64,000 bases of DNA from a bacterium. Lineage in GTDB: Bacteria > Sysuimicrobiota > Sysuimicrobiia > Sysuimicrobiales > Segetimicrobiaceae. Location: the NCBI GenBank assembly GCA_035308905.1, contig DATGFS010000048.1:121422-185421 (forward strand), read 5' to 3'. Position 1 is the first letter of the stretch. Each line of letters begins with the position of its first letter. Of this stretch, positions 5,875 through 54,884 are shown one piece after another. A program made the position numbers and the translations under genes. Below the pieces are notes generated by a model. The model was not told the origin of the DNA, made no database searches, and was given only the letters and a program-made list of their open reading frames with translations.

Positions 5875-6261
5875 ATGCCGCGAAACGTGACCGGGCTCGA
5901 CCCCAAGGCCAAGGCCCAGATTCTCGCGCGGCTGCGCAGCATCGAAGGGCACTGGCGCGCGGTCGTCCGGATGGTCGACGAGGACCGGTATTGCGTAGAC
6001 GTCATCAAGCAGATCAGCGCCGTGCAGAGCGCCGTCGACAAAGCGACGGCCCTGCTGCTCGAGCGGCACCTCAACCACTGCGTGACCGGCGCGATCCGGT
6101 CGGACAATCCCCGTCAGCGCGAGCGCGCCATCGCCGAGCTGCTCGAGGTCTTCGAAAACCGCCGGCAGTACGCGTCGATTACATCGTTGCCGGCGCGCGT
6201 TGGCTCGCGCCCGCAGGCCCGGAGCCGGCCGGCACGGTCGAACGGCGGCGGCGCCTCGTAG
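5875..6261 (+). CDS. csoR: CsoR/RcnR-family copper-sensing transcriptional repressor
   Basis: DUF156 core ([42 protein letters not shown]...ERHLNHC) with conserved Cys/His ligands. Start moved to the ATG at 5875 so that the operator is non-coding. Its stop lies 13 nt before the copA ATG. Confidence 0.75.
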
Positions 6262-6274
6262 ACCGGAGAATGCG

Positions 6275-8563
6275 ATGACGGCGGAAACGCGCGCGGCCAC
6301 GGCCACGGTCGATCTCCCCATCGAGGGGATGACGTGCGCGTCGTGCGTTCGCCGAATCGAGAAGTCCCTGCGCCGCGTCGACGGGGTGAGCGAGGCGATG
6401 GTGAACCTCGCCGCGGCCAAGGCGCGCGTCGTCTTCGATCCGGCCGTGGCCACCGTGGAGCGCCTCGGCGCCGCGGTGGAGCAGGCCGGGTATGCGGTGG
6501 GACCCGCGCCGGAGGCCAGCGCGGCGTCGGGAACGCCGGCGGCGCCCCGATCCGGGGAGGACGATCCGGCCCAGCGCGAGCTGCGCGACTTGCGCGTCAA
6601 GTGGCTCACGAGCCTGATGGTGGGCGCGGCGATGATGGCGCTCATGTATCTCCCCCTTCACCTCGACATGACGCTTTGGGCGCCGGTGCTCCTGATCGCG
6701 GCCTCGGTCGTGCAGTTCTGGGCGGGCGCGGTGTTCTATCGCGCGGCATGGGCCGCCGCGCGCCACGGCGCGGCCACCATGGATACGCTGATCGCGCTCG
6801 GTACGGGCGCGGCATACGGCTACAGCGCGTTCGTGACGCTCTGGCCGTCGCTGGCGCGGCGCTGGGGATTCCCGCCCCATCTCTATTACGACTCCGCGGT
6901 CATCATCATCGCCCTGATTCTCCTCGGGCGCTGGCTGGAGCGCCGTGCGATGAAGCAGATGGGGGCGGCGATCACCGCGCTGATGAGCCTGCGTCCCAGG
7001 ACCGCGCGCGTCGTTCGCGAAGGCGCCGATCGGGATGTGCCGGTGGAGACGGTGCTCGCCGGTGATCTGATCCGCGTCCGGCCGGGGGAGACGCTGCCGG
7101 TCGACGGGGTCGTGCTGGAAGGGGCCTCGGCCGTCGACGAGAGCATGCTGACCGGAGAAAGCCTGCCGGTCGACAAGGCGCCCGGCGACACCGTGATCGG
7201 CGCGACGCTCAACACGAGGGGCTCGTTCGTCTTCCGCGCGACCAAGGTCGGGAAGGAGACGACGCTCGCGCAGATCGTCCGCCTGGTCGAAGAGGCGCAG
7301 GCGTCGAGCGCGCCGATTCAGCGGCTCGCCGACGCCGTCGCCGGCGTCTTCGTGCCGGTGGTGCTGGCCGTCGCGCTGCTGACGTTTGCCGGCTGGCTGC
7401 TGCTGGGGCCGGAGCCGCGGCTCACCTTTGCCCTCACCGCGGCGATCGCCGTCCTCATCATCGCGTGCCCCTGCGCGCTTGGGCTCGCCACCCCGACGGC
7501 GATCATGGCCGGCACCGGCACGGCGGCGGAGCACGGGGTCTTGATCCGCGGCGGCGGGGCGCTGGAGCAGGCGCGGCGGGTGACCAGCATCGTGCTCGAC
7601 AAGACCGGCACGCTGACGGCGGGCCGGCCCGAAGTCGTCCGCGTCCTGCCCGCCGGCGGTATCGAAGAGTCGGACGTGCTGCGGCTCGCGGCGGGCGCGG
7701 AGCGCGGGTCCGAGCACCCGCTCGGCGGCGCGATCGTCGCCGCCGCTCAGGCGCGGCGTCTCCACATCCCGCAGGCGGAGCGGTTCGAGTCGATCACGGG
7801 GAAGGGGATCACCGCGATCGTGGAAGGCCGCCGGCTGGCCATCGGCACCCGCGCCTTTATGGACGAGATCGGCGCCGCGCTCGACGGCCTGGGGGACCGT
7901 GCCGCCGAGATCGCCCGGACGGGCGCCACCCCGATGTTTTTGGCCGTGGATGGCCGCGGCGCGGGTCTGATCGCCGTGGCGGACCGGATCAAGCCCGGGG
8001 CTCGGGAGGCGGTCGAGTCGCTGCGGGCGCTCGGGCTCGAGGTGTGGATGGTGACGGGGGACCACCGGCTCGCGGCCGAGGCCGCCGCCGTCGAGGCGGG
8101 GATCGATCCCGCACACGTGATGGCGGAAGTCGCGCCGCGCCAGAAAGCGGAGAAGGTCAAGGCGCTGCAGGCCGCCGGGCAGGTGGTGGCGATGGTCGGC
8201 GACGGGATCAACGACGCGCCGGGGCTCGCGCAGTCCGACCTGGGCATCGCCATCGGGACGGGGACCGACGTCGCGATGGCGGCGTCCGACGTCACGCTCG
8301 TCGGCGGCGAGCTGCGCAACATCGCCGCGGCGATTGCGCTGTCACGGGCCACGGTCCGCGTCATCAAGCAGGGGCTCTTCTGGGCGTTCGCCTACAACGT
8401 GGTGCTCATCCCCGTCGCGATGGGCGCCCTCTACCCGTTCTTGCACGTCCTGCTGAACCCCGTCTTCGCGGCGGGGGCGATGGCGATGAGCAGCGTCAGC
8501 GTCGTGACGAACGCGCTGCGGCTGCGCGGATTCCGCTGGCCGATCAGCGGCCAGCAACCGTGA
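6275..8563 (+). CDS. copA: Copper-translocating P1B-type ATPase
   Basis: N-terminal HMA domain [13 protein letters not shown]; CPC motif ([12 protein letters not shown]); DKTGTLT; GDGINDAP. Confidence 0.9.
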
Positions 8564-8601
8564 AATCGAAGCCGGACCGGCGATACGGGAGGAGAGCGTC
8601 T

Positions 8602-8829
8602 ATGACACGGGTCGTGCTGCGGGTGCCGGATATCTCATGCGAACATTGCGAGCGGACCATCACACAGGCGCTCGGGCGCACGGCCGGCGTCCGCGCGGTC
8701 GAGGTCGACATCCCGGCCAAGGAAGTCCGCGTCTCCTACGACGAGGGGTCCGTCGATCTCGGGCGGCTCAAAGCGGTGCTGCAAGCGGAAGACTACCCCG
8801 TTGCCTCCGCCGCCCCGGCGGACTCGTAG
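8602..8829 (+). CDS. copZ: Copper chaperone, HMA-domain protein (CopZ-like)
   Basis: 75-aa ferredoxin-like HMA fold with the metal site ISCEHC (a variant of MxCxxC); RBS GGGAGGAG upstream. The track ORF 7465..8829 is an out-of-context fusion with a junk N-terminus. Confidence 0.7.
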   Translation: MTRVVLRVPDISCEHCERTITQALGRTAGVRAVEVDIPAKEVRVSYDEGSVDLGRLKAVLQAEDYPVASAAPADS

Positions 8830-8832
8830 GGA

Positions 8833-10695
8833 GTGCATTCTCAGGCCGCGCCAAGTCAACCACGTCGGGGGAACAATGAGAACGTGGGATACCTGCCCAT
8901 CGAACGGTATGGTGTGGTCGGTGATCTTCGAACGGCGGCTCTGATCGGGGTCAACGGTTCCGTCGATTTCCTGTGCTTTCCCCGGTTCGACTCGCCGTCC
9001 ATCTTCCAGGCGCTGCTCGACGACGAGCGGGGCGGCCGGTTTGCCATCACGCCGCTCGTCGAGGACGTCCGGCACCGGCAGCACTACCTGTGGGATTCCA
9101 ACGTCTTGCTGAGCCGCTTCCTGGCCGCGGACGGCGTGGCGGAGATCTCCGATTTCATGCCCCTCGAGCCGCCCGGCGGCGCGCCGCAGCTCGTCCGCCG
9201 CGCGAAGACCGTGCGCGGCGAGGTCCGGTACCGGCTCCTCTGCGCGCCGCGATTCGACCACGCCCGCGCCCGGCACCGCGCGGTCGTGACCGAGGATGGC
9301 GTCGTGTTCACCCCAGACGCGACGGACCTGCCGGCGCTGCGACTCCGCGCCGAGGTGCCGATGCGCGTTCGCAACGGCGACGCGGTCGCGGAGTTCACCC
9401 TGGCCGCGGGCCAGACGTGCGCGTTCATCCTCGAAGAGGCCCGGCAGGGTGAGGCTCCGGCGGCCGAGTTTGGTGGCTACGTCTCCCAGTCGTTCAAAGA
9501 CACCCTCAACTACTGGCGCCGGTGGATCGCGCGGTCGACGTATCGGGGCCGCTGGCGTGAAATGGTGAACCGGTCCGCGCTCGCCTTGAAACTCCTCACC
9601 TCCAGCGAGTTCGGGTCGATCGTGGCGGCGCCGACGTTCGGTCTGCCGGAAGTCGTGGGCGGCGAGCGCAACTGGGACTACCGGTTCACCTGGATCCGCG
9701 ACGCGTCGTTCACCATCTACGCGCTGCTGCGCCTCGGCTACACGGACGAGGCACGGGCGTTCATGCACTGGATCGCGCTGCGCTGTGAGGACATGAACCC
9801 CGACGGGTCGCTGCAGACGATGTACGGCATCGACGGCCGCCGGGACCTGACCGAAGCGGCGCTGCCGAACCTCGCCGGGTACAAGGGATCCAGCCCCGTC
9901 CGCACCGGCAACGACGCGTTCCGCCAGCTGCAGCTCGATATCTACGGCGAACTCGTCGACAGTATCAATCTCTACGACAAATACGTGGTGCCCATCTCGT
10001 CGGGGTTCTGGGAGGGGCTCACGCGGCTGATCGAGTGGGTCTGCGACAACTGGCGGCAGGCGGACGAGGGCGTCTGGGAAGTCCGCGGCGGCGCCAAGGA
10101 ATTCTGCCAGTCACGCGTGATGTGCTGGGTCGCGCTCGACCGGGCGCTGCGGATCGCCCGGCGCCGGTCGTTTCCCGCACCGATCGGGCGCTGGCACGAC
10201 ATCCGTGACGAGATCTACCACAGCGTCTTCCACGACTTCTGGGATCCCACGCGGCAGGCGTTCGTGCAGCACAAAGGCGCGTCCGCGATGGGCGCCGCCA
10301 ATCTCCTAATGCCGCTCGCGCGGTTCGTGAGCCCGGTGGACCCGCGCTGGCTCTCCACGATGCGCGCGATCCAGCACGACCTCGTGGACGACTCGCTGGT
10401 GTACCGCTACCGGGTCGAGCAGGCGCCGGACGGTCTGCGGGGGCACGAGGGTACGTTCAATATGTGCTCGTTCTGGTACGTCGAGGCGCTGTCGCGGTCC
10501 GGCGACATCGAGCAGGCGCGGCTGCTCTTCGAGAAAAACTTCGGGTACGCGAACCACCTGGGCCTCTACTCCGAGCAGTTGGGGGCCTGCGGCGAGCACC
10601 TCGGCAACTTTCCCCAGGCGCTGACGCACATCGGGCTCATCAGCGCGGCCTACGATCTGAACCGCCGGCTCGAGGCCGCCGGGCAGGGGACTTAG
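8833..10695 (+). CDS. Glycoside hydrolase family 15 protein (glucoamylase/trehalase-like)
   Basis: N-terminus GYLPIERYGVVGDLRTAALIGVNGSVDFLCFPRFDSPS is characteristic of actinobacterial GH15 enzymes; the (alpha/alpha)6 catalytic region is conserved. Confidence 0.75.
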   Translation: MHSQAAPSQPRRGNNENVGYLPIERYGVVGDLRTAALIGVNGSVDFLCFPRFDSPSIFQALLDDERGGRFAITPLVEDVRHRQHYLWDSNVLLSRFLAADGVAEISDFMPLEPPGGAPQLVRRAKTVRGEVRYRLLCAPRFDHARARHRAVVTEDGVVFTPDATDLPALRLRAEVPMRVRNGDAVAEFTLAAGQTCAFILEEARQGEAPAAEFGGYVSQSFKDTLNYWRRWIARSTYRGRWREMVNRSALALKLLTSSEFGSIVAAPTFGLPEVVGGERNWDYRFTWIRDASFTIYALLRLGYTDEARAFMHWIALRCEDMNPDGSLQTMYGIDGRRDLTEAALPNLAGYKGSSPVRTGNDAFRQLQLDIYGELVDSINLYDKYVVPISSGFWEGLTRLIEWVCDNWRQADEGVWEVRGGAKEFCQSRVMCWVALDRALRIARRRSFPAPIGRWHDIRDEIYHSVFHDFWDPTRQAFVQHKGASAMGAANLLMPLARFVSPVDPRWLSTMRAIQHDLVDDSLVYRYRVEQAPDGLRGHEGTFNMCSFWYVEALSRSGDIEQARLLFEKNFGYANHLGLYSEQLGACGEHLGNFPQALTHIGLISAAYDLNRRLEAAGQGT

Positions 10696-32931: not shown

Positions 32932-33521
32932 AACGCAGGTCCTGCCTGACCATCTGAGCAGTGCGATGAAGCCATGCCGCCCCCTTTGGTGCGGATCGCC
33001 GGTCCTGCGTGTCCTGTACCTTCGCAGGTCCTCGCATCTTCAGACCGCAAATAACAAAGCCGAACGACGTGAACGTTCGGCTTCGGCAACCCGGCTGACC
33101 CGGCAAAACAGTCCCGGTACTACCGGCTTTGGCAGCCCGGCTGATTGCACGGCGGCCCCGTGGCTTTGCGCCCCCGCGTTACCGCGAGTTTGCCTTTATC
33201 CACCGCAGCCTCTCAGCGGTGTCTATCCGCTGTCTCTTTTACAACTCTGGCACAGTGCTCGCGCGCGCTTGCTGCTGCTGTATCTTTGCCACATCGAAGC
33301 AAAATCTTAACTTCATTCTAACTTCATCGACGGTTTACTTGTAGATTCGGAGTAAAGTGGGGAGCGGAAAGGAGGTTGCGCAAAAAAAACCATTCGGGGC
33401 TCCGCCGGCCGCACGGTGAGGAGAGCGCCGCCCGCTTCGCCCCGCCCTCCGCGTCCCCGCGAAACGCCTTATGATCCTTTCGCTATGATGATCGTACCTT
33501 CACTCTTCGAGGGTACTTCAT

Positions 33522-51456: not shown

Positions 51457-51490
51457 CGCCGGCCGACCCATGGCCGGCCGCTTACTTTTT
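51457..51490 (+). terminator. Putative terminator after kdpE
   Basis: GCCGGCC-7 nt loop-GGCCGGC stem, then CCGCTTACTTTTT. The U-tract is displaced by 8 nt. Confidence 0.35.
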
Positions 51491-52021
51491 CGGGTCGAGC
51501 TTCAACGCCGCGGAGTTGATGCAGTAGCGGAGTCCGGTCGGCACCGGGCCATCGTCGAATACATGCCCGAGGTGGGCGTCGCAGCGCGCGCACAACACTT
51601 CGGTCCGGATCATGCCGTGGCTCCGGTCGGTCTCCTCCGCAATCGCGGCGTCCTGGGCCGGACGTGTGAAGCTCGGCCATCCGCATCCCGCGTCGAACTT
51701 GGCGTCCGACTCGAAGAGCTCCGCACCGCAGCACACGCACCGGTAGGTGCCGGGCGTCGTCGTCTTCTCGTACTCGCCGCTGAACGGCCGCTCCGTCGCT
51801 TTGCGCCGCGTGACGGCGTACTGCTCCGGGCTCAGCAGCCGGCGCCATTCCGCGTCGCTCTTTGTCACCCTCTCGGAGGCGGGACCTCCCCTGTCTGACG
51901 CAGGACCTCCGGCCGCGTCTGAGCCTGCGGCGCGGACCAAAGATGCGCCTCCTGCGGGCGCGTCTGAGCCTGCGGCGCGGGCCAAAGATGCGTCTCCTGC
52001 CTTCTCGCCTTGCTGTGCCAT
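51482..52021 (-). CDS. msrB: Peptide-methionine (R)-S-oxide reductase MsrB with a repeat-containing low-complexity N-terminal extension
   Basis: SelR core with 2x CxxC ([10 protein letters not shown]...[12 protein letters not shown]). The ~55-aa Ala/Gly/Ser N-terminal extension is encoded partly by a 2x ~43-bp tandem repeat. The true start may be internal (GTG). Confidence 0.7.
51915..51999. repeat. 2x ~43-bp tandem direct repeat inside the msrB 5' region
   Basis: GCGTCTGAGCCTGCGGCGCGG(A/G)CCAAAGATGCG(C/T)CTCCTGC repeated back-to-back. Confidence 0.6.
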
Positions 52022-52235
52022 CGAGGCTCCCTCACCTATGCTTCAACCGAAGTTTCTGTCGCTTCCACGATATCTCCGCGGCGGATTGTCCGCAAGCCGG
52101 CCGCCGGCCGCGGCGTCCGGTCTTCACAACTTCCCGCTCAAGTTCCCCGGTCTTGGGCATCACAACACACAAGACTCGGGGCACGTTGCGGTAAGGGCGG
52201 CCGACGAAATCCCGAGACACCGGCCGCCTGAGAGG

Positions 52236-54884
52236 ATGTTTCATATCATGCCGCGTCTTGCGGGGCAGGGGGAGCCGCAGCGCGTCGCGGAGACGCAGGA
52301 AATTCACCGGGACGCGAACGTCGAACTGCGCGCGACGCTGATGGCGCGCTTGGTGGCCGTCAGCGAAACCCTGCGCGGAAGTGCGTCGACGGAGGCCGCC
52401 GCCGCGGCGGTCGGACGGGCCCTGCTCATGTTGACCGGTGCGGCGCGCAGCGCCGTCTTTCTCCGCTCGCAGAACGGCATCGTCACGTGTCCCTGGTCGC
52501 ACAACCTGTCGGAAGAATACGTCGCGCGGCTGCGGACGCCGGACGGCGCCAATCCCTGGGCGCATCTCTCCCGCCATCCCGAACTCGCGTGCATGGACCT
52601 GCCGGCGCGCGGCCGCATCAAGGCCGCCGTGCCCGCGATCGTCGAAGACGTTCGAACGCTGCCGGCCGGCAACGAGATCCGCCGCGCCGCGGAGCGCGAG
52701 CGCATCCGCGCGTTCTGCTCGTGGCCGCTCAGCCGCGGCGGGCGCGTGTTCGCAGCGGTCGCGTACTATTTCGAGGCGCCGCACGCGTGCGCGGCCGCCG
52801 AGCGCGAGGTCGTCCTGGCTTTTGCGCTGCAGGCGACCGCGACACTCGAGCAGGCGATCGCCGCGGAGGCGCGCGGGGAGGGGGCCGCGGAAGCCGAGGC
52901 CGCCGGGGCCGAGGCGGAGGCCCGGCTCGAGATCGAGGCGGCTCGACTCGCGGCGCTGCAGCGCGCGCTGGATGCCGAAAGCGCGCGTCTCTCCGCGGAG
53001 CGAACGGAGCTCGCGGTGGAGGACGAGCGGCTCGGCGGCGCGCGGCGTGAGCTCGACGCCGACCGCGAACGGCTGGTCGAGACGCGGCGCGCACTCGAGA
53101 ACGAATCCGAGCGGTTTGCCGCCACGCGCGGCGAGTTGGAGGCGGACCGGAAGCGGCTCTCGGACCTCCGTCGCGAGGCGGAGGCGGAGCAGGCGCGGCT
53201 GGAGGCGTTCCGCCGCGAACTCGACCTGGAGCGGTACCAGATCGACCGGCTCCGCGAGGAGATGGACGGCGCGCGCAAGCTGCTCACGAAGGATCAGGCG
53301 GAGCTCGATGCTGCGCGTGCGGATGTCACCAAGCACCGGACGGAGCTCGAGGCCAAGCGTGCGGCCATCGCCAACGACCGGGCGGATCTCGACGCGGATC
53401 GCGCCGGGGTCGTCAAGGCGCGGGCGGATATCGAGGTCGAGCAGGCGCACGCTGCCGAGGACCGAGTGGATCTCGACGCGCGGCAGGCGGCCGTCGCCAA
53501 AGCCGGGGCCGATCTCGAGGCCGGGCAGGCGGCCGTCACCAAAGCCCGGGCCGAGCTCGAGGTCGAGCAGGCGGCCGTCACCAAAGCCCGAGCCGAGCTC
53601 GAGGCCGGGCAGGCGGCCGTCACCAAAGCCCGAGCCGAGCTCGAGGCCGAGCAGGCGGCCGTCACCAAAGCCCGAGCCGATCTCGAGGTCGAGCGCGCCA
53701 AGCTCACCGAGGCTCGGCGGGCGTTGGAGGCCGAGCGGCTGCGGTCTGCGGAGTCCACAGGGGCCGCGCCCGACAGCGACGCGGCGGAGCGCGCGCGGGC
53801 CGCCGCCGAGCTGGAGCAGGAGAAGAACCGCCTGATCGAGGCGCACGGCGAGCTCACGGCCGCGGAAACCGAGCTGGCCCGGACGAGGGCCGCACTGGAA
53901 GCCGAGACCGCGCGGCTCGCGGAGGCGCGGCGAGAACTCGAAGGGGATCGCGCGCGTCTCACGGAGGTCCAGCGTGTCGTCGAGGAGGATCGGGCACGTC
54001 TCTCGGACGTCCAGCGGGCGCTTGAGACAGACCGCGCGCAGTTGGCGGAGATGCGGGCGGCCTTCGACGCGTCCAGCGCACGGCTCGCCGACGCGCAACG
54101 AGGGTTCGGGGTCGAGCGGGAACGCCTCGCGGACGTCTGCCGCGCGCTCGACGGCGAGAAAGCTGAGCTGAAGGCCGCTCAGGGCGGCCTCACCGCGGAG
54201 TGCGCGCGCCTATCGGCCGCCGTCGCCGCGCTCACCGACCCGGCGCCTGCCTACTCCCCGGCCGTTGCCGGGCCGGCGACCGAGGCCGCGCGGCCTGTCC
54301 GCACCGCCCCGTCCGGCCCGGCGAATGGCAAGCAGGGCCCCACCAAAGACGTCAGAGCGGGGAAGCCTGTCGTGCCGCCGGTTCCGTCCGCGCCTTCGTC
54401 ACAACTCCCGAGCGCTACCGGCGGACCTGCCGCCGGTCCTCAGCCGGGACCGGTCAACTCGGTCATCGGCCGGCAGACGACGCCGGAGAAGTATCGCGAG
54501 CGTCTCGCCGGATGGGCCGAGGTCGCTGCGAAGGCGCTCGGCTGCAAAGAGCCCGAGGTGCTCGACCTGCGCCGGGCCGCGCTGCTTCAGGGGGTCTCCG
54601 CGCCCGCCGGAGGCGCCTTGCCCCGGGGCGTCGCGGTGATCCTCAAGCACCGCGAGGAGCGCTGGGACGGGACGGGGACGCCCGACCATCTGAAAGAGGA
54701 CGCGATCCCGCTCGGCGCGCGGATTCTCGCCGTGGCCACCGCCTACGCGGACATGGTCACCGGCGGGCCCGGCTCCCCGATGCTCTACTACCTGGACGCG
54801 AAAGCGCATCTGCGGCGGAACGCCGGCGCCGCGTTCGATCCAAAGATCGTGGAGGTGTTCTGCCGCGTCGTCGATCGCGGCTGA
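52236..54884 (+). CDS. Large GAF-like / long coiled-coil / degenerate HD-GYP multidomain protein (~880 aa)
   Basis: N-terminal ~200 aa GAF-like region. About 500 aa of heptad-rich coiled coil, including 14-aa tandem repeats (QAAVTKARAELEAE). A Pro-rich linker, then a C-terminal HD-GYP-like segment (HREERWDGTGTPDHLK...IPLGARILAVATAYADM...AGAAFDPKIVEVF) in which HD is replaced by QG and GYP by GTP. Start ATG at 52236 or 52248 (RBS GAGAGG). The track ORF start at 51747 overlaps msrB and is rejected. Confidence 0.6.
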   Translation: MFHIMPRLAGQGEPQRVAETQEIHRDANVELRATLMARLVAVSETLRGSASTEAAAAAVGRALLMLTGAARSAVFLRSQNGIVTCPWSHNLSEEYVARLRTPDGANPWAHLSRHPELACMDLPARGRIKAAVPAIVEDVRTLPAGNEIRRAAERERIRAFCSWPLSRGGRVFAAVAYYFEAPHACAAAEREVVLAFALQATATLEQAIAAEARGEGAAEAEAAGAEAEARLEIEAARLAALQRALDAESARLSAERTELAVEDERLGGARRELDADRERLVETRRALENESERFAATRGELEADRKRLSDLRREAEAEQARLEAFRRELDLERYQIDRLREEMDGARKLLTKDQAELDAARADVTKHRTELEAKRAAIANDRADLDADRAGVVKARADIEVEQAHAAEDRVDLDARQAAVAKAGADLEAGQAAVTKARAELEVEQAAVTKARAELEAGQAAVTKARAELEAEQAAVTKARADLEVERAKLTEARRALEAERLRSAESTGAAPDSDAAERARAAAELEQEKNRLIEAHGELTAAETELARTRAALEAETARLAEARRELEGDRARLTEVQRVVEEDRARLSDVQRALETDRAQLAEMRAAFDASSARLADAQRGFGVERERLADVCRALDGEKAELKAAQGGLTAECARLSAAVAALTDPAPAYSPAVAGPATEAARPVRTAPSGPANGKQGPTKDVRAGKPVVPPVPSAPSSQLPSATGGPAAGPQPGPVNSVIGRQTTPEKYRERLAGWAEVAAKALGCKEPEVLDLRRAALLQGVSAPAGGALPRGVAVILKHREERWDGTGTPDHLKEDAIPLGARILAVATAYADMVTGGPGSPMLYYLDAKAHLRRNAGAAFDPKIVEVFCRVVDRG
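53485..53694. repeat. Five near-perfect 42-bp tandem repeats (plus degenerate flanking copies) within the coiled-coil CDS
   Basis: Unit CAGGCGGCCGTCACCAAAGCCCGAGCCGAGCTCGAGGCCGGG/GAG at 53485, 53527, 53569, 53611 and 53653. Degenerate copies at 53443 and 53695. Confidence 0.8.

Follow-up and report, generated by a model that had tools for sequence, protein, structure and literature searches.

Probable lineage-specific expansion of an in-frame 42-bp tandem repeat in the helical rod of a GAF/degenerate HD-GYP protein

The 64-kb window analysed here (the whole stretch of DNA examined; all coordinates are window positions) carries on its plus strand, at 52248-54884 (stop codon included), a gene for a protein of 878 amino acids (aa) that combines an N-terminal GAF-like domain, a long helical rod and a degenerate C-terminal HD-GYP domain. 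The part of the gene that encodes the rod contains five near-identical 42-bp tandem units, to which an earlier note on this DNA had drawn attention. We consider it likely that these five units arose as a lineage-specific, in-frame expansion within a hot zone of the long helical rod, which lies between a GAF sensor and a dead HD-GYP-derived domain. The ATG at 52248 is most likely the true start of the gene: the sequence GAGAGG lies ~12 nt upstream, exactly this 878-aa product has been called as a gene on ENA contig ERZ27279685:k141_957228, and the homologues open with the same MPR(V/L)AG. The guanine-cytosine (GC) fractions at codon positions 1, 2 and 3 of the gene are 0.80, 0.54 and 0.86, which confirms the plus frame. 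Codon-position GC, the identical called product and ten clear homologues together bear out the claim of the earlier note that the repeats are in frame inside a coding sequence (CDS). We rejected the mechanical 1045-aa open reading frame (ORF) at 51747-54884 as the gene, because its first 167 codons overlap an msrB-like gene on the opposite strand and the homologues start at the equivalent of 52248. The array is also overlain by long minus-strand ORFs (52032-54098 and 53294-53962), which we took for high-GC artefacts, since both homology and codon-position GC favour the plus frame.

Tandem Repeats Finder reported an array with a 42-bp period at 53346-53694 (8.3 copies, 79% matches, score 353). 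In the correct register the units begin at 53442, which is frame 0 of the ORF, and the five near-identical copies occupy 53484-53525, 53526-53567, 53568-53609, 53610-53651 and 53652-53693 on the plus strand (aa 413-482), each encoding a version of QAAV[T/A]KA[R/G]A[E/D]LE[A/V][E/G]. Pairwise, the five are identical at 37-41 of 42 positions (88-98% intra-array identity), which corresponds to 1-5 differences with a mean of 3.2; units 2-5 of the five differ from one another at only 1-3 positions. The flanking units are divergent and match the consensus at 27/42 (53442-53483) and 25/42 positions (53694-53735). Searching the 64-kb window for the consensus 42-mer with up to three mismatches gave four matches, all of them within the array, where 0.00 were expected from 100 shuffles. 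There are six variable sites among the five units, five of them non-synonymous, and each unit carries a distinct combination of variants. These data confirm that the array is an in-frame intragenic tandem repeat, made of head-to-tail copies beyond chance, with a unit of 14 codons and within a genuine CDS. The array was first described as 53443-53736, which was right about five in-frame tandem units in a CDS but not about the span: the latter equals 7 x 42 bp, lies one base off register and includes the two divergent units. Reading from 53443 shifts the frame by one base and yields translations that make no sense; the register was corrected to 53442. Similarly, the 1-3 differences given at first hold for units 2-5 and not for all five. 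A phase-variable contingency locus was rejected as an interpretation, because the 42-bp unit is a multiple of 3 and lies deep in the ORF, so that a change in unit number keeps the frame.

The N-terminal GAF-like domain (52308-52877, aa ~21-210) was recognised with AlphaFold2 (AF2), Foldseek, phmmer and Pfam. It is modelled with a predicted local distance difference test score (pLDDT) of ~90, and it matches the GAF structure 3hcy both in Foldseek, with a template modelling (TM) score of 0.81 on the target, and in phmmer (E=4.9e-4). The Pfam GAF match of the window protein scores 19.6 and stays below the cut-off of 22.4, whereas the family proteins P0001, P0003 and P0007 (P-numbers denote family proteins) exceed it; the GAF_2 match is likewise below its cut-off in the window protein and above it in homologues. 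The rod comprises about 400-430 residues, is heptad-phased and consists of 14-residue units; AF2 models the region of aa ~226-660 as three long helices (226-372, 386-501 and 512-660). Arm 1 of the rod contains units 1-8 (52941-53276), whose 14-aa register is kept in all orthologues, followed by the hot zone (53277-53696), where ten 14-aa units separate conserved unit 8 from the last conserved unit; their number varies among orthologues. The last unit of arm 1, AKLTEARRALEAER (53697-53738), is the conserved downstream anchor of the hot zone. It is followed by a short non-helical inter-arm linker, RLRSAESTGAAPDSD... (53739-53822), which contains Gly, Pro and Ser and coincides with a break in the AF2 model (pLDDT <50 at aa 503-512); the 14-aa register shifts beyond it. 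Arm 2 (53823-54239) adds ~ten more 14-aa units, seen as a period-14 pattern and as the AF2 helix 512-660. Between the rod and the C-terminal domain lies a Pro/Ala-rich linker of ~80 residues (54240-54479, aa 661-744), which is predicted to be disordered (AF2 pLDDT 31-37, no secondary structure) and is poorly conserved in length and sequence among homologues. All of these features are read on the plus strand.

The C-terminal domain (54480-54881, aa 745-878, plus strand) is a degenerate and internally truncated HD-GYP domain according to Pfam, phmmer and Foldseek. Pfam HD_5 matches with 62 bits (cut-off 27.2) but covers only positions 97-170 of the 170 profile positions, phmmer matches the domain to PA4781 with E=1.2e-12, and Foldseek finds fold matches to DvhD, PA4781 and PmGH. 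We mapped residues onto PmGH by way of P0007, a family member with a full-length match to HD_5, and took the roles of HD-GYP residues from Galperin and Chou (preprint 10.1101/2021.11.05.467447); the metal ligands tested were, in PmGH numbering, E185, H189, H221-D222, H250, the HH pair and D305. The HD dyad is lost in the window protein, where it is replaced by QG (AALLQGV in place of AALLHDIGK). A ~32-residue deletion removes the segment with KPG and His250, HHE is changed to REE with loss of the HH pair, GYP is changed to GTP (DGTGTP) with loss of the tyrosine, Asp305 is replaced by T, and RxxK is replaced by GxxS (GPGS; GGPGSP). The protein therefore retains the HD-GYP homology and the GAF domain of PmGH-type phosphodiesterases, and lacks the HD dyad and the other metal ligands, the GYP tyrosine, KPG and RxxK. 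Judged by these residues, the window protein cannot be a phosphodiesterase of the known HD-GYP type, and binding of cyclic di-GMP (c-di-GMP) in the canonical mode by its C-terminal domain is unlikely. In this family, a GAF-HD-GYP signalling enzyme appears to have been turned into a non-catalytic, rod-shaped protein. The window protein looks cytoplasmic, with neither signal peptide nor wall anchor. Elsewhere in the window, at 33128-33204 on the minus strand, we found a riboswitch aptamer of the c-di-GMP-I class (RF01051; 59.8 bits, gathering score 35), which indicates that the organism uses c-di-GMP signalling and provides a background for the dead HD-GYP domain. No rRNA was found in the window. 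The JGI label 'nucleic acid-binding Zn-ribbon protein', attached to two homologues, was not adopted, because Pfam and NCBIfam scans of family members gave no Zn-ribbon match.

Arm 1 is 266 aa long, and one heptad position is occupied by L/V/I/F/M in 36 of its 38 heptads. Four residues after this conserved hydrophobic position, R or Q is found in 34 of the 38 heptads, and the hydrophobic periodicity of the arm peaks at 7.0 and 3.5. The 14-residue unit is made of two alternating heptad flavours, and the other positions of the arm are rich in Ala, Glu and Asp; overall, charged residues account for ~43% and Ala for 24%. It is plausible from this pattern that the rod is a coiled coil, although a non-ideal (Ala-rich) one at best. 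A single alpha-helix (ER/K) domain is not favoured, because there is a conserved hydrophobic seam in every heptad. Nor do we favour an antiparallel hairpin of the two arms, whose lengths vary independently among orthologues (see below) and whose three-helix layout comes from a monomer model with a low predicted TM score (pTM). No named family for the rod was found in Pfam or NCBIfam, the only matches being sub-threshold coiled-coil look-alikes (SMC, HmpF, PspA, MscS_porin and FBF1). An alpha-helix rises by ~0.15 nm per residue; the calculated length is ~2.1 nm for 14 residues, ~10 nm for the five units and roughly 39 nm for arm 1.

Ten clear homologues of the protein were present among 5.8 billion protein clusters, and a search of 1.84 billion with only the N-terminal domain as probe returned 19 cluster representatives at E<=1e-30. 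The family is known here from soil metagenomes and soil metagenome-assembled genomes (MAGs) only. Among the related loci that we fetched (designated by L-numbers), neighbours of the gene in the window are shared by L002, L009, L010, L011, L012, L003/L013, L005, L015 and L027. The shared neighbours vary by locus and include kdpD, kdpE and msrB upstream and an ABC transporter and an aminotransferase downstream, with 84-97% protein identity; we therefore regard these loci as orthologous positions. Compared with L002 and L009, protein identity is 84-90% in the end domains and the first eight units (85-88% for units 1-8, whose DNA is 86-88% identical), whilst tblastn identity of the whole protein is only 67-71% because of the hot zone and the linkers. 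The end domains are clearly under purifying selection.

Comparison of these orthologues showed where the rod changes its length. Units 1-8 are in register in the window, L002, L009, L011 and L012, and units 1 and 8 lie exactly 98 aa apart in each of the nine sequences tested. The last unit of arm 1 (AKLTEARRALE...) is in register in the window, L002, L009, L011 and L010, and its DNA is identical at 39/42 positions to the counterpart in L002 and at 33/42 to that in L009. Between these two anchors, the distance from unit 8 to the last unit is 154 aa in the window (11 unit lengths), 126 aa in L002 (9 unit lengths), 98 aa in L009 (7 unit lengths) and 42 aa in L011, L010 and P0002 (3 unit lengths). 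P0001 contains two last-type units, the first at 42 aa and the other at 77 aa, that is, at 11 heptads. The 14-residue steps foreseen in the earlier note are thus found between species, where anchor-to-anchor distances are exactly 11, 9, 7 or 3 unit lengths, and the comparison of copy number in related genomes that it proposed shows a difference among syntenic orthologues. In six orthologues the hot zone of arm 1 measures 89-195 aa and arm 2, taken as the B-to-C anchor distance, 74-127 aa, and the length of one arm does not follow that of the other. In other lineages the same hot zone has grown independently, with different units, and repeat instability seems to be general to the family.

We next considered the age of the five units. 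The best DNA match of each is another of the five (38-41/42), and none matches any unit of L009, L002 or L011 at more than 35/42 positions. The flanking, older units of the window best match their positional counterparts in L009 or L002 (32-39/42). Orthologous DNA identity over units 1-8 is 84-88% (68-78% at third positions), and because the identity within the array (88-98%) is higher, the units expanded, or were last homogenised, after the separation from the nearest relatives available. In L009 the place of these five is taken by two units, ADVAKARADLDVQH and ADVAKARADLEVER, which gives a net gain of ~three units. By this comparison, the five units probably represent a lineage-specific expansion of ~three units. 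With respect to the mode of expansion, the four-gamete test failed for five of the 15 site pairs among the five units, and older neighbouring units also carry the minority states found at sites 30, 38 and 41. A single amplification fits this pattern less well than do repeated rounds of unequal exchange or conversion among the units; recurrent mutation may be an alternative explanation for the four-gamete failures, given the small number of sites. The suggestion of recent expansion or concerted evolution made in the earlier note agrees with the mutual best matches of the units, with the excess of intra-array over orthologous identity and with the four-gamete failures.

We propose that neighbouring 42-bp units would undergo misaligned pairing, by unequal recombination or replication slippage, and that two ancestral units would have become five in this way, with further exchange between units. 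Each step would add or remove 14 residues (~2.1 nm of helix), and because this step equals two whole heptads the hydrophobic seam would stay in phase. If the rod forms a parallel homo-oligomer, both chains would change together and length changes would be tolerated. The rod would serve as a spacer or scaffold with a weakly constrained exact length, and the GAF and dead HD-GYP domains would be the conserved functional ends, probably for the binding of a partner or ligand. We favour a weakly constrained spacer over a precise ruler because of the ~80-residue disordered linker and the independent variation of the two arms.

Several points weigh against this account. The rod has only one strongly hydrophobic position per heptad, and the +3 position is mostly E, A or D, which makes the heptads non-canonical. 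The AF2 monomer model has a pTM of only 0.32 and breaks arm 1 at aa 373-385 (53364-53402), with pLDDT <50 over aa 363-388. The heptad register runs unbroken through this break, which may be a real hinge or an artefact of the monomer folding back on itself. The spacer or scaffold function is one that we infer, and the conserved neighbourhood of the rod gene offers no evident partner gene. The five non-synonymous sites out of six, few as the sites are, could reflect selection for unit diversity rather than neutrality. Finally, there is no copy-number variation between the two near-identical assemblies available, the array being identical in both, and both are short-read assemblies (k141, MEGAHIT-style) that could share the same collapse.

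This last point leads to the possibility that the array is an assembly artefact, either really longer, with identical units collapsed, or with tandem copies produced by a mis-join. Short-read, MEGAHIT-style contigs were the source in both cases. The warning of collapse in the earlier note is justified in general: related contigs do end in such arrays, that of L012 running past the end of its contig, and in MAG SMAG_U8773 contigs L004 and L005 each hold a part of the gene, whose central region is missing. Against this, the ENA contig corresponds to window positions 42248-62718 and is 99.946% identical over 20,471 bp, with 11 single-nucleotide polymorphisms (none in the gene) and no gaps, so that two assemblies that differ by these polymorphisms agree on an identical array. 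Exact direct repeats within 53300-53800 reach 41 bp at most. Because this is far below k=141 and the typical read length, and because the units carry distinct variants, the assembled path is well determined unless there are extra, perfectly identical blocks. The ORF also stays open and in heptad phase, and we consider an artefact improbable. The insertion of a dispersed repetitive or mobile element into the gene, which the earlier note had named as the finding that would overturn an intragenic expansion, has practically nothing in its favour. The consensus unit is confined to the array within the window, and the units are homologous to, and in register with, older flanking units and those of orthologues. 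Moreover, of the other loci fetched, only L001, which is the same DNA, contained a 31-base core of the unit, and no IMG/VR contig did. We rejected this explanation, having found neither the unit at the other loci searched nor any evidence to support it.

Two further explanations accept the expansion and differ in the meaning they give to it. One is an adaptive molecular ruler, in which rod length is selected and lineages tune the distance between the ends, or between bound partners, by 2-nm units. Such a ruler would account for length changes that are quantised in whole units between strongly conserved anchors, for end domains under purifying selection (84-90% identity), for a hot zone confined to one place and not spread along the rod, and for independent expansions in several lineages. 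However, quantised changes are equally expected from the mutation mechanism combined with maintenance of the heptad phase, the disordered linker after the rod would blur a precise distance, the two arms of the six orthologues do not vary together, and no partner or cellular structure is known. We consider a selected ruler unlikely. The same low likelihood applies to its more elaborate form, a genetically tunable spacer, in which a former GAF-HD-GYP phosphodiesterase would now be a scaffold, the hot zone would set the reach from the GAF head to the docking domain in 2-nm increments, and copy number would be adaptively adjusted between species and possibly paralogues. The other explanation is a multivalent binding array, in which each 14-residue unit, by its invariant Arg/Gln and acidic positions, binds a ligand or partner and copy number determines valency rather than length. 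The recurrence of Arg or Gln at one heptad position (34 of 38 heptads), the regular charge pattern and the alteration of surface residues at five of the six sites that vary among the new units would suit this idea. Yet the same pattern extends along the whole rod, including the old conserved units, as it would for a structural repeat; the rod region matches only generic coiled-coil families below cut-off (SMC, HmpF and PspA), and no candidate ligand is known. A multivalent array is therefore very unlikely in our view, and an in-frame expansion in a spacer of weakly constrained length remains the probable explanation.

Further repeats were observed in other members of the family. L012 contains at 6862-7338 at least 11 tandem 42-bp units (85% matches) with the unit ARQGEVRAELAAEE, in an array that reaches the end of its contig (7340). 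L002, from MAG SMAG_U6314 (gene 6001-8910), has a 126-bp higher-order repeat of three units (88%) and, at 7218-7985, a segmental duplication of 381 bp (2.0 copies, 88%) that runs from the last rod unit through the inter-arm linker into the beginning of arm 2, and gives rise to two copies of the AKLTEARRALE...ELEQEKNRLIEA segment in the protein. Repeat periods of 84 and 42 bp were seen in L009. At the protein level, P0003 contains a 7-residue ERERAD[VL]/ERERAG[LF] series at aa ~395-435, and P0007 a 6-residue HETGK[TM]L series at aa ~525-555, after the rod. Several paralogues occur per MAG (L002, L006 and L007 in one; L004/L005 and L008 in another), and they are 37-67% identical to the window protein. 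The presence of multiple paralogues per genome suggests that the family has diversified within an uncultured soil lineage. We found no description of the GAF/rod/dead HD-GYP architecture in the literature; the family is small, undescribed and, beyond its end domains, not covered by a named Pfam or NCBIfam family.

In the window the rod gene is followed by ABC-transporter genes for an ATPase, an NMT1-type binding protein and a permease. The ATPase gene is 48 bp away, no terminator-like site was found between the two genes, and co-transcription is possible. In L002, L009 and L011 the transporter genes are absent or present as fragments (L009 keeps 99 aa of the permease and L011 98 aa of the ATPase), and the aminotransferase beyond the transporter region is kept in all three with 93-96% identity. 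The loss or fragmentation of the transporter in some orthologous loci argues against an obligate functional link with the rod gene. Upstream, between the divergent msrB and the rod gene, there is a second tandem repeat at 51906-52000 (45 bp x 2.1 copies, 92% identity), which sits in the N-terminal extension of the called msrB ORF (51482-52021, minus strand). Of the 179 msrB residues, those matched in the orthologous loci are confined to the C-terminal 130; the repeat-bearing extension is therefore not conserved and may not be coding.

With regard to wider meaning, the locus shows how the length of a helical rod can change, in that a confined hot zone between conserved anchors gains or loses two-heptad units and the seam is never broken. 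If rod length matters functionally, the natural series of 3-11 unit lengths offers ready-made length variants. Such arrays can break short-read assemblies in relatives, and caution is needed in using copy number as a marker. Size variation by intragenic repeats is already known in helical proteins, and the array in the window is a clean and unsurprising example of it; the host protein family is more interesting than the repeat itself.

Streptococcal M proteins are size-variable coiled-coil proteins with intragenic tandem repeats. The array resembles these and other intragenic repeats in having near-identical, in-frame tandem units in a helical heptad region, with copy number differing between lineages, presumably by recombination or slippage, and with homogenised central units and diverged edge units. 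Unlike M proteins, the window protein has signalling-type end domains and neither signal peptide nor wall anchor; no immune or phage selection is evident, and variation in its family is seen between species only, not between strains. Equally, FrzS and AglZ of Myxococcus are scaffold proteins composed of a pseudo-receiver domain and a coiled coil. The window protein is similar in carrying a degenerate signalling domain on a very long helical repeat, which is consistent with a role in scaffolding or localisation and not in catalysis; we claim no homology, and its end domains differ, being GAF and a dead HD-GYP. Intragenic tandem-repeat variation in bacteria generally is touched on in a Legionella survey (PMC2639597).

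The closest relatives of the architecture are the PmGH-type GAF-HD-GYP c-di-GMP phosphodiesterases (PDB 4MCW; PMC4159591; 10.1101/2021.11.05.467447), with which the window protein shares an N-terminal GAF domain and a C-terminal HD-GYP-homologous domain, with detectable similarity in sequence and fold. In contrast to PmGH, it has a ~430-residue helix of 14-aa periodicity and the ~80-residue disordered linker between these domains, and its HD-GYP domain lacks ~32 residues, all metal ligands, the GYP tyrosine, KPG and RxxK. Its sequence suggests that the host architecture is derived from this PmGH-type family. DvhD, one of the best fold matches in Foldseek, is a non-catalytic HD-GYP c-di-GMP receptor (PDB 9RBZ; PMC13090378). 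Like DvhD and the N-terminal pseudo-HD-GYP domain of V-cGAP3 (PDB 5Z7C), which serve regulatory or binding roles, the C-terminal domain of the window protein is HD-GYP-derived and has no HD dyad. It matches V-cGAP3 with 22 bits in the N-terminal second HD-GYP-like region (EHWNGQGRP) and with 10.5 bits in the region of the HD/GYP motifs. DvhD itself is full-length, retains GYP (DGTGYP) and RxxR (RPRSYRP) and binds c-di-GMP, whereas the window protein has DGTGTP and GGPGSP at these positions and an internal deletion.

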